Shown in pieces: positions 24,001 through 33,996 of a stretch of 64,000 nt of DNA. Made by a program: the position numbers. Positions within the stretch are counted from its first letter, which is position 1. Each line of letters begins with the position of its first letter. This stretch comes from Escherichia coli. Lineage in GTDB: Bacteria; Pseudomonadota; Gammaproteobacteria; Enterobacterales; Enterobacteriaceae. The stretch is from the NCBI RefSeq assembly GCF_044324785.1, contig NZ_CP172127.1; one strand, written 5' to 3'.

Positions 24001-27000
24001 TCAGCAGGACCGTAAAATTGAGTTGATTGTTAATAACATCGCGAACGTGCCGGAAGAGAACAACCACAGCCATGAAGCCAGCGCCCAGGCAGATGGCGTT
24101 GATGGTGTGGTGATGGATCTCGATGTAACCGACAGCTTTGGCGATAACACCGACCGCAACGGCGATGCGCTGCCGGAAGATAACCTCACGCCGCAGCTTT
24201 ACGACGCGCAGGACAAACGAGTGACGTTAACCAACAAGCCTTGCTCGACCGACAACCCCTGCGTTTTTATCGCTAAACAAGATAAAGAAAAGGGCACTGT
24301 CACCCTCTCCAGTACCTTACCCGGCACCTATCGCTGGAAAGCAAAAGCCGCGCCCTACGACGACAGTAACTATGTGGATGTCACTTTCCTCGGGACAGAA
24401 ATTGGTGGGCTAAATGCATTTATCTATCGTGTGGGGGCAGCTAAACCCAGCAACCTGATAGGTAAAGATAAAGAACCGCTGCCGCTCAACAACACTTATC
24501 GATTTGTTTTGTGGCGTGACAGCAATAAAGACGGTGTCTTCCAGCAGGTCGAAAAACTGACTGACGAAGAGATGGCGCAGTACGACTACAAGTGGGAATT
24601 TACCGGCAAGAGCATCAATGGTGAAGTGGGTGCACAGGCGAACACATCCAATGAGGACATTGTGATTCCGGCCACTAACCGCGAAGCGGCGCAAACCTAT
24701 GGCGCACAAGCGGGAGATGGCTTGCAGGGATACGGTTTACGCGTGCTGTATACCAAAAAATAAGATTGGCGTAAGGCCAGTCGGCCAGTCGCTGAAGGTT
24801 CATTAAGGAGAGCATCAATGAAGCAGGATAAAAGACGCGGTCTGACCCGGATCGCATTGGCGCTGGCATTGGCAGGTTATTGTGTGGCACCTGTGGCGCT
24901 GGCGGAAGACAGCGCATGGATAGATAGCGGAGAAACCAATATTTTCCAGGGGACCATTCCGTGGCTCTATTCGGAAGGGGGAAACGCTACGACAGATGCC
25001 GACCATGTAACGTTGACTTCTGATCTAAAAGGCGCTCGCCCGACAGGCAGTGAAACGGACAAGCGTCTTTACTCGGGTGATAAATTAACCGTAAGTTGGG
25101 AAATTGGTGATACCGAAGGCGACGTGGATCTTGGGGTATTGGGCGATAACGCAAAGACTATCGATACTATCCGCTGGATGAGCTACAAGGACGCTCAGGG
25201 TGGCGATCCGAAAGCGCTGGCAACGAAGGTGACCAGTTACACTCTTACCGATGACGACCGTGGTCGTTATATCGGTATTGAAATTACGCCAACCACGCAG
25301 ACCGGTACGCCAAACGTCGGGAATGCGCTGCATCTTTATGACGTTTCCACTGCCAGCGGCGGAGGAAGCGACAGTGACAACGTTGCGCCAGGGCCGGTAG
25401 TTAACCAGAACCTGAAAGTCGCCATCTTTGTTGATGGTACCAGTATCAACCTTATCAACGGCAGCACGCCAATCGAACTTGGCAAAACCTACGTGGCCAA
25501 ACTGTACTCGGATGAGAACAAAAACGGGAAGTTTGATGCGGGTACCGATGCTGACGTTACCGCCAATTATGACTTCCGTTGGGTACTTTCTGGCAGCAGC
25601 CAACAGCTCGGCACCTCGGCTGGTATCGTTAACTCAAGCTTCGATAATAACAATCTGGTCATCCCGAAAACCAACGACGAAGCCAGAACCAACCTTAACG
25701 GCCCTGCGCGCGATGGTAAAGAGGCTCTTACCATCCCGACAAACGGCGACGGGGTACAGGGGTACAAACTTCACATTATTTACAAACACAAATAACGCGT
25801 ACTCAGCAGCATTCCCGCAAGGGAATGCTGTTTCCGCATATTTTGCTTAATCCCGAATTAAGCAAAATATGTTGATGCGACAAGCGTCCGTTTAACAACC
25901 GGTGGAGTTTCTGTCATGTCCCTGACCCTGAATAAAATCCTTGTGTTATGCGCATTGCTGATAAGCGCAATGCTGCCTGGGTGGTCATGGGCAGAATCTG
26001 CATGGCAAGACTCTTCAGATACCGTAGGTGAATTTAACGGTACCGTGCCCACCGCCGACAGTGCCAGCATACCCGTCTACCAGGGCAGTGTTTTTCTGGA
26101 TCCTGCAAAGACGCATGAGGTAGCGTTTACCGCTAAACCGAGTGAATTTAGCGCGGATGTTAGCGTCTCTAAATTGCTCGTCACCAATCCGCAAGACAGA
26201 GAAGGCGATATCATTGCCACCCCACGTTGGGAAAACCAAACGCCACCGACAGTATCTTTAGTTTGGGCGGATGCAGCGACGCCGGACACCTTACTGGACC
26301 CACAGCCAGTCGCAGATCGCTCGTTTTGCGCTCAGGGACTTGCCGGGCGTTCGTTGATCGCCTGGGCGCAGCCAGACTCCCAGCAGACCATGCCTCTGTT
26401 ATATCTACTTACCTCGACGGGCTATCCCTATGAAAGTGTTCTGACGCTCGCCGATCAGAAAGTGACGCTGAAGATTGCGCCCGCGCAGGGTGACCTTATT
26501 TCCGTCAGCGCCGCGGGCTATGACGAATCCTCCGGTGCGGCGAAAACGACGGTTGGCGGCAGTATCACGTTAACGGTCACTACCAAAGATTGCGTCGGTA
26601 ATGTTGTGGGGAATATTCCTTTTGTTATCAAACGCAAAGATGCTGAAAACCGCCAGGGTGTGGTGAACAATACTGCGCCTGTAAAACTGGGCACGACCGA
26701 ATTAACCACCACCGCGACGGAATATCGTGGTACTACCGATGCGAATGGTGTTGCCACGGTTACGGTCACCCAGGCCAACGGCCCTGGTGTAAAAACGCCG
26801 TTGGTCGCGAGCCTCGCGGGTATTGCTCAGACCAGTGAAACGGCAGTGATCTTTACCGTCCTCACCAGCCCGGATGTCCCGCAGGCTACAATGTGGGGTC
26901 ATATGCCCGATACGCTGAAGGCCCGTGATTACACTTTTAGTCGACCAAAACTGGCGACGGAAGTCGATAATGAAGACGGTACGGTTAACGATCACAATGA

Positions 27001-33000: not shown

Positions 33001-33996
33001 AACTGGCTGGTCAGTTTATTATTACTGGTGGGCGCAGGATAAGACTACAGATGGTAAAAATCAGTCACTCAATATGAAAGATGGCACAACGACATTGAAT
33101 GGTAATGCCGCTTATCAGGCGTGTCTGGTGTCTGCACGCGCGACGGTTTCCAGCGTCACACTGACCTCAACAGCGTTTGATGCTGACAGCCAGGCGGCGA
33201 AAGTGAAAAAAGGCGAAGCCATGCCCGTTACCGTGACGGTGAAAGACAGCGCCGGGAATACGGTGCCGAATGTGGAATTTACTTTGAAACGCGGTGAGGC
33301 ATCGCCGCGTAACGCTGGGGCAACGTTGTATGGTGATGTGGTGGCGATGGACGATCTCATCGTTCAGCCGTTATCTGGTTCGGCTGTTACGCTGAGTGAA
33401 AGCGGTAATACCATTAGTGGCATGACAGGCGCGGATGGGACGGCAAGTTTTACGCTCCGCCAGGATAATACCCCTGGTTATAAAACGCCACTGACGGTTA
33501 CTCTGGCTAATTACGCTTCCGCGACAGACACGCTGGACGCTATTTTTACGGTACCAACCAGCCCGAATGTTTCCTCGGCGCACTTTTGGGGACATATGGC
33601 AGACACTGCAGTGGTGAATGGTAAATCGCTACATCGACCGTTGTTAACGACAGAATTGCCGTCCGGGGCTAATCCCGTATCCTCACCGATTATTAACTAC
33701 GAAAACTGGGCTTCTGCACATATCATTGATGCCAGTAAATGGGATATTGCAAGACAGTGTGGCAGCATAGAAAATGCACCGACATACAATGAATTAGAGT
33801 TGTTGCACACTGTTTTTAATTCACTGGGATGGCCGTCTTCACCAAGTTTTCCTTATTTGTCCTCTCAACAGTGTGGGATGGACGAAGGCACTGGAGCACA
33901 GGATTGTAGTATCACGCTAATGAATAAACCGGGTCTGGTGACCTGCTTCCAGTAACCAGCATGGCGCATCTGGCGTGGCCTGGGAGCTACGAATTA

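Follow-up and report, generated by a model that had tools for sequence, protein, structure and literature searches.

The 64,000-nucleotide stretch of Escherichia coli DNA analysed here (contig NZ_CP172127.1, assembly GCF_044324785.1; hereafter, the window) carries a giant RatA-like gene, rat, whose product contains nine tandem units, each of them a complete tip of the type found in the adhesin InvE, formed by an immunoglobulin (Ig)-like domain and a C-type-lectin-like domain. The array is old and under purifying selection, and its units 5 to 8 constitute a recombined segment that is hypervariable between E. coli alleles. We consider it rather probable that Rat is a multivalent adhesin made of these anciently duplicated tips, exported by Sec and devoid of a barrel of its own, which would reach the cell surface through the products of the two preceding genes, the barrel protein SinH and its partner SinI. 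The gene and its parts, all of them on the plus strand, are the following:

25916..33955, +, RatA-like gene, 2679 codons plus stop (list of open reading frames (ORFs), translation, full-length NF011844 match)
25916..25993, +, predicted Sec signal peptide, residues 1-26 (…WSWA/ES; cleavage site predicted from sequence), the sole hydrophobic segment in the protein
25994..26050, +, conserved N-terminal motif common to Rat and SinI, residues 27-45 (SinI hidden Markov model, HMM)
26051..26485, +, N-terminal beta-sandwich domain, residues 46-190, without Pfam family
26537..27310, +, unit 1 (BIg21, residues 214-316; InvE_AD, 319-444); Pfam, unit HMM
27317..28105, +, unit 2 (BIg21, 478-584; InvE_AD, 587-713); Pfam, unit HMM
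28115..28939, +, unit 3 (BIg21, 740-851; InvE_AD, 855-987); Pfam, unit HMM
28952..29806, +, unit 4 (BIg21, 1019-1134; InvE_AD, 1137-1274; conserved RGD at residue 1045); Pfam, unit HMM
29816..30655, +, unit 5 (BIg21, 1307-1418; InvE_AD, 1421-1558), the unit that was modelled
30677..31504, +, unit 6 (BIg21, 1595-1702; InvE_AD, 1705-1839); Pfam, unit HMM
31520..32353, +, unit 7 (BIg21, 1875-1987; InvE_AD, 1990-2117); Pfam, unit HMM
32366..33196, +, unit 8 (BIg21, 2157-2269; InvE_AD, 2272-2404); Pfam, unit HMM
33197..33952, +, unit 9, terminal (BIg21, 2433-2546; shortened InvE_AD, 2550-2653); Pfam, unit HMM
29816..33196, +, hypervariable recombination block, units 5 to 8 (comparison of strains N3 and S88)

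Domain architecture of Rat

Over its entire length, the gene was 100% identical to that of E. coli strain N3, where it is annotated as "adhesion domain-containing protein". The first-pass annotation had called the protein RatA-like, and this name was supported by the NCBIfam model NF011844 ("RatA-like protein", PRK15316; cut-off 3870), on which Rat residues 1-2679 align with model positions 1-2683 at 5398.9 bits. The RatA-like protein of the sinH-sinI-ratA "ila" island of extraintestinal pathogenic E. coli belongs to the same family and occupies the same der/yfgJ-xseA locus, and the orthologue from strain S88 (nine units, 2683 residues, 85% identical) showed nothing different in kind. The scores against the Salmonella models for RatA (NF011843; 1996.6 bits, cut-off 3700) and RatB (NF011842; 2248.7 bits, cut-off 4079) were both below their cut-offs, so that Rat is a paralogue-level relative of these proteins and not an orthologue; only its first ~1450 residues are collinear with these two models. 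Salmonella RatA and RatB (CS54 island; "DUF823/DUF824 repeat adhesin") present the same N-terminal domain and the same kind of units as Rat, with units 1 to 4 collinear, and their genes likewise lie downstream of sinH-sinI. The number of units differs, being eight in Salmonella RatB, six in a representative of RatA size (P0155, 1845 residues) and nine in the Rat studied here.

An N-terminal region of 213 residues, to which no Pfam family was assigned, precedes the units. From there on, nine BIg21 domains (PF05688; E-values from 1e-19 to 3e-26) strictly alternate with nine InvE_AD domains (PF05689, "Adhesion domain"; E-values from 2e-16 to 2e-39), two Pfam families formerly named DUF823/DUF824, names that persist in NCBIfam titles. 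A unit HMM recovered the identical nine units, arranged back-to-back, in agreement with the earlier proposal that an Ig-like domain is coupled to another conserved module. This second module shows the C-type-lectin-like domain (CTLD) fold and is the adhesion domain of invasin-type adhesins; the structure of the InvE adhesin (PDB 5N40) matched Rat by sequence with an E-value of 5e-24. By structural identification, each Rat unit is a complete InvE-type tip. The InvE protein of Yersinia pseudotuberculosis carries a single such tip behind an N-terminal beta-barrel, whereas Rat lacks the barrel and has a tandem series of nine tips. Neither IAT_beta (PF11924) nor any inverse-autotransporter model matched Rat in any Pfam or NCBIfam scan, and because it lacks the barrel Rat is not an inverse autotransporter. 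Its units do have the Ig-like plus C-type-lectin-like composition in which the passenger of an inverse autotransporter ends, and each of them works like such a tip.

All Rat adhesion domains contain exactly two cysteines at conserved offsets, except for that of unit 9, which has four and is followed by no linker. One disulfide is probably formed per lectin-like domain, judging from these positions; intimin and invasin have one disulfide in theirs. In addition, an RGD tripeptide was found in the Ig domain of unit 4 (window positions 29048-29056, residues 1045-1047) within the context F-x-L-x-RGDGYTR. It is kept in unit 4 of 11 of the 13 Rat-like proteins examined, and in the Salmonella-type relatives further units have RGD at the corresponding loop; a role in integrin binding is possible, or the tripeptide could simply belong to the domain consensus.

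The distribution of the unit was analysed by searching its profile against 1.84 billion cluster representatives. Only 447 proteins were found at E≤1e-3, most of them with a single unit, and tandem arrays were confined to Rat-like proteins, with three to nine units, nine being the maximum seen. Seven of the 447 were inspected for architecture. The three full-length proteins with a C-terminal unit (P0194, P0199, P0235) all had an N-terminal inverse-autotransporter barrel; two others (P0215, P0240), in which the unit is central or N-terminal, had no barrel, and the last two corresponded to a fragment with a partial barrel (P0202) and to an intimin-like protein (P0224). Since most matches are single-unit and arrays appear in Rat-like proteins only, the Rat family can be described as an invasin-type tip that was multiplied and separated from its barrel. 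A search with the 213 N-terminal residues of Rat yielded mostly gene fragments, so the full-length relatives cited in this work come from the search on cluster representatives.

Age, selection and allelic variation of the array

The nine repeats and the period of 800-857 bp described in the first-pass annotation were both recovered. The motif [IVM]FT[VT]xTSP[DN]-x5-[MYF]WGHM occurs at residues 312, 580, 848, 1130, 1414, 1698, 1983, 2265 and 2543, with spacings of 804, 804, 846, 852, 852, 855, 846 and 834 nt that are reproduced by a DNA-level motif family (D2); the start proposed for the array, position 26500, precedes the first unit (26537) by ~40 nt. A second segment that had been considered common to all units, KKGE/KVGE...V.V.TKD...GN, was exact in seven of them and degenerate in the other two. 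The motif tracked here, FTVxTSPD…WGHM…FxRPLL, covers the final Ig strand together with the beginning of the adhesion domain, and for this reason it marks the domain junction (probably the interdomain interface) and not a binding site.

The periodicity was also evident when no motif was used. BLOSUM62 autocorrelation of the protein gave peaks at lags of 284 (z=10), 568, 851 and 1135 residues, whereas z did not exceed 5.0 in any of 100 shuffles, and all 36 pairs of units aligned by BLASTP across 149-290 residues with E-values from 2e-76 to 5e-16, compared with 0.076 for the best of the shuffled units, so the signal does not come from low-complexity strings. In a BLASTP self-comparison, the whole protein gave the diagonal alone, and hence alignments between separate units and autocorrelation were used in its place.

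The units were found to be strongly diverged. Their protein identity ranges from 26 to 43% (mean 33%), and codon-aligned DNA identity from 39 to 52%, which bears out the early remark that they share little at the nucleotide level. At third codon positions, identity was 27-38% (mean 32.5%) versus the 25.6% expected by chance from composition, and synonymous sites between units are near saturation. As expected for repeats diverged to this extent, Tandem Repeats Finder detected no array of the unit period, its only tandem repeat being one of 9 nt in 2.2 copies. When units were compared with those of Rat-like proteins from other lineages, the best matches of units 1 to 4 and of the terminal one had the same ordinal position, with 40-80% identity; no clear counterparts were found there for units 5 to 8. 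This positional orthology implies that the array predates the split of the Rat lineages and that copy number shifts in its distal-central part.

Regarding variation within E. coli, the alleles at this locus have either nine units (N3, S88, Ecol_867) or seven (O145:H28), and they are 85%, 66% and 53% identical in protein (BLASTP local alignment). The N3-type allele is present in 378 complete genomes at ≥95% identity, and most of its differences from the S88 type fall in units 5 to 8. Between these two types, units 1 to 4 and 9 showed 93-99% amino acid identity and synonymous divergence (dS) of 0.03-0.28, and units 5 to 8, 59-75% identity and dS of 0.65-1.9. The ratio of non-synonymous to synonymous divergence (dN/dS) was 0.07-0.34 in every Rat domain. 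Positive selection was considered as the origin of the divergence of units 5 to 8 and rejected, as dS is also very high there and dN/dS stays at 0.08-0.34. Thus, units 5 to 8 are an old recombined segment under purifying selection. As a whole, the array is old and under purifying selection (the first-pass annotation had held it to be old and under selection) and is not a product of slippage: the low protein identity, the third positions close to chance, the lack of any array for Tandem Repeats Finder, the positional orthology and the low dN/dS all lead to this conclusion.

Export and function of Rat

Rat is encoded between der/yfgJ and xseA-guaBA, immediately 3' of sinH and sinI. The features upstream of it are the following:

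22556..24763, +, sinH, intimin-like inverse autotransporter (outer-membrane beta-barrel plus Ig-like passenger); NCBIfam NF033423 inverse_SinH
24818..25795, +, sinI, barrel-less partner protein with signal peptide; NCBIfam NF040711 partner_SinI
25806..25866, +, sinI-rat spacer with two hairpins, identified by direct reading of the sequence

Both assignments were well above the respective cut-offs (SinH, 1487 bits for 999; SinI, 335 bits for 165). In SinI, residues 69-210 matched ZirU_fam (E=5e-7) and the C-terminal domain (residues 208-325) resembled the SinH C-terminus (residues 625-730; E=1.9e-10). The order of the trio was assessed at three relative loci with a readable upstream region (L006, L007, L008), and in all of them, as in the window, an IAT_beta barrel gene (730-740 residues) was followed by a SinI homologue (40-45% identity) and by rat; the L006 trio is located at a different chromosomal site, beside cca- and ygiF-like genes. 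At L004 and L005, sinI and rat are kept in this order and the contigs end before the position of the barrel gene. In addition, SinI homologues bore names from Escherichia, Salmonella, Citrobacter, Kluyvera, Pseudocitrobacter, Superficieibacter and Leminorella. Between E. coli strains, SinI is as hyper-divergent as Rat, with 69% and 62% DNA identity for the L002 and L003 alleles, in which sinH is better conserved (93% and 86%, respectively).

A conserved motif is shared by the mature N-termini of Rat (residues 27-45) and SinI, the version of SinI in the window being EDSAWIDSGETNIFQGTIP. In other lineages, it reads LKxGxWQ…TxAINGTxP in Rat and LKSGQWQxVSExTGTIQGTVP in SinI, and the consensus for the Rat family is LKxGxWQx5-6TxAINGTxP. 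It is present in 97 of 104 SinI homologues, and an HMM made from SinI alone matched seven out of seven distinct Rat-like N-termini at the motif position with 11-17 bits, compared with 3.6 bits for the best of 567 unrelated ORFs of the window. Alignment with hhalign of the mature Rat and SinI regions, signal peptides removed, extended over 87 columns (P=1.7e-4; reversed control, 0.57) and took in a second common motif, D-x-EGD; the NCBIfam partner_SinI model also reached the Rat N-terminus, at E=0.028. Residues 27-45 of Rat are predicted to be unstructured or flexible (predicted local distance difference test score <50). As a conserved, flexible N-terminal peptide common to both barrel-less proteins of the operon resembles what would be expected of a docking tag, this motif may be an export or docking tag. 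Searches against PDB sequences gave no match for SinI and nothing below E=0.7 for the Rat N-terminal profile.

In the mechanism that we favour, the array arose by an ancient tandem duplication that preceded the divergence of the Rat lineages now found in different enterobacterial genera; purifying selection has maintained it since then, and recombination swaps the distal-central units 5 to 8 between alleles. The signal peptide would send Rat through Sec, and the SinH barrel, together with SinI, would carry it to the cell surface, with the short N-terminal motif of Rat and SinI as a putative recognition tag. Export through the SinH barrel appears the most likely route because Rat has no barrel of its own, and a multivalent adhesin is its most likely function because its units are homologous to surface-displayed binding tips. 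Three observations support this route: the linkage of the barrel gene, sinI and rat, a natural fusion of the SinH barrel to Rat units (P0158), and the N-terminal motif common to Rat and SinI. Rat-like proteins have been proposed as substrates of the co-encoded inverse autotransporter (Heinz et al. 2016, PMC4943183), and the ZirT barrel, which exports ZirS and ZirU, has been invoked as an analogy for cargo of the Rat type (PMC4943183; also Goh et al. 2019, PMC6714894). Uropathogenic E. coli is attenuated in a mouse model of urinary tract infection when genes of the sinH-sinI-ratA ("ila") cluster are deleted (PMC12928451), which fits an adhesin role for Rat.

The likeness to the ZirT/ZirS/ZirU system of Salmonella consists of a barrel gene followed by barrel-less partners with signal peptides, and of the match of SinI to the ZirU family model. 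The similarity between partner and barrel passenger that is typical of that system holds for SinI with respect to SinH and fails for Rat, which resembles SinI at the N-terminus only. Besides, Rat is ~10 times longer than the 210-residue ZirU family model, and its lectin-like units are not known in ZirS or ZirU. Export of the ZirT type is a demonstrated system, and that of Rat via SinH is proposed by analogy with it.

Several data weigh against an adhesin of this kind exported by SinH. Regarding the adhesin function, none of the Rat adhesion domains contains the canonical Ca2+/sugar motifs EPN, QPD or WND (the sole QPD in the protein, at residue 152, lies within the N-terminal domain), and no binding, localisation or secretion data on Rat were found in the searchable literature. 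Regarding export, the pore of the barrel would need to pass ~2650 residues, including disulfide-bonded domains, and the motif scores are individually marginal (11-17 bits; E-values from 6e-4 to 0.07 for a database of 5000), with an hhalign probability of only 49% for Rat and SinI. The SinH::Rat fusion P0158 mentioned above (1616 residues, 16 contigs) joins SinH residues 1-504 (74% identical) in frame to Rat units and, with its frameshifted continuation, may be a decaying gene. The fusion is found at the der-xseA locus of another lineage (L009, 8001-17983; L010, 1296-11278), where it is followed by an overlapping ORF of six units (1711 residues) without signal peptide, and corresponds to a deletion fusion plus a frameshift. 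Finally, no significant similarity was detected between the Rat N-terminus and SinH, and rat is intact in strains where sinH (O145:H28 strain 12E115; L003, 1-2078) or sinI (S88; L001, 3902-4880) is annotated as frameshifted, which argues against a strict dependence or else reflects recent decay.

These last two observations also speak for the most serious alternative, that Rat is an adhesin or agglutinin exported independently of SinH and SinI, either remaining periplasmic, released by vesicles or lysis, or using another outer-membrane route, with its neighbours kept by co-regulation or by co-inheritance on a single island. The same direction is indicated by the adhesin and biofilm activity that SinH/IatB has by itself, without the downstream gene (PMC6714894), and by the two hairpins of the sinI-rat spacer, on account of which rat may be separately transcribed or attenuated. 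The first hairpin pairs CAGCATTCCC with GGGAATGCTG in a stem of 10 bp that encloses a GCAA loop and is followed by a short T tail, TTTCC, and the second is a 9-bp inverted repeat (TTGCTTAAT/ATTAAGCAA) with the loop CCCGA; the pair, located between the two genes, may constitute an incomplete terminator or an attenuator. A consensus terminator scan left them unflagged, because the T tract is short, and consensus promoter and terminator scans around sinH, sinI and rat gave nothing above shuffles. We nevertheless regard independent export as unlikely, given that the order barrel-SinI-Rat is kept at every locus with a readable upstream region, one of them at a different chromosomal site, that Rat shares its N-terminal motif with SinI, that its units are homologous to domains otherwise displayed at the surface as passengers, and that export of barrel-less Ig proteins encoded alongside it has been demonstrated for the related ZirT barrel, according to a work cited in PMC4943183.

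A second alternative is that the terminal unit alone binds a ligand, and that units 1 to 8 act mainly as a stalk or shield, long and antigenically variable, which carries this tip past lipopolysaccharide and capsule. Unit 9 is indeed distinct in its four cysteines, shortened adhesion domain and missing linker; of the distal units it is the most conserved (97% between N3 and S88), with orthology across lineages, and classical inverse autotransporters bind via a single terminal tip. The strong variation of units 5 to 8 between alleles would also suit a shield. However, all the internal units keep a complete adhesion domain, the cysteine pair and low dN/dS, and other members of the family have Ig-only stalks, so eight extra lectin-like domains would be unneeded for length; we find this option improbable. 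As for the periodicity being a recent product of slippage or expansion, or an artefact of low complexity, the idea is refuted by the DNA divergence between units, with third codon positions near chance, by alignments that cover two folded domains, and by a unit order conserved across genera.

Returning to the export of Rat by SinH and SinI, a more elaborate version of it can be put forward tentatively. SinH, SinI and Rat would make up a two-partner branch of type Ve secretion, in which the flexible motif LKxGxWQ…TxxI[NQ]GTxP, present at the mature N-terminus of SinI and of all Rat-like proteins, would be the tag for docking barrel-less cargo on the SinH barrel, the 2650-residue chain of nine lectin-like modules would be threaded to the surface, and recombination in units 5 to 8 would shuffle ligand specificity or antigenicity among lineages of E. 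coli.

Genomic context and significance

The G+C content of the sinH region (0.444 across 22001-24000, versus ~0.53 in the flanks) is as expected for an acquired island. Outside it, guaB, guaA and der showed 96-98% DNA identity and 99.8-100% protein identity between E. coli strains. The core gene xseA (33994-35364, minus strand), which adjoins the island, showed only 90-93% DNA identity, the raised divergence of the island thus reaching into this flanking gene. Elsewhere in the window, ORFs of 1653 and 770 residues between 5695 and 12969 have the same sizes as yfhM (alpha-2-macroglobulin) and pbpC, and a stretch of lower G+C content with numerous short ORFs extends from 40 to 54 kb.

The repeat architecture, both repeat domains and this exact gene are already catalogued, and as a sequence discovery the finding is ordinary, because curated models exist for both domains and for the family. 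What is added here is the identity of the units as InvE-type tips, the single unit as the norm with nine as the maximum, the mosaic of units 5 to 8, and a candidate export tag shared with SinI. The latter may provide a direct handle on the long-standing idea that inverse-autotransporter barrels export separate cargo. The island is common in extraintestinal pathogenic E. coli, a Rat-like gene being present in at least 1736 of 5426 complete genomes, and SinH, encoded next to it, is under investigation as a vaccine antigen. Between lineages, the distal units of Rat differ by 25–40% in protein, compared with 99.8–100% identity for guaB, guaA and der, though not for xseA. The nine-tip make-up of Rat, the variability of its distal units and its possible dependence on SinH bear on host tropism and on the lineage coverage of vaccines directed to this locus.

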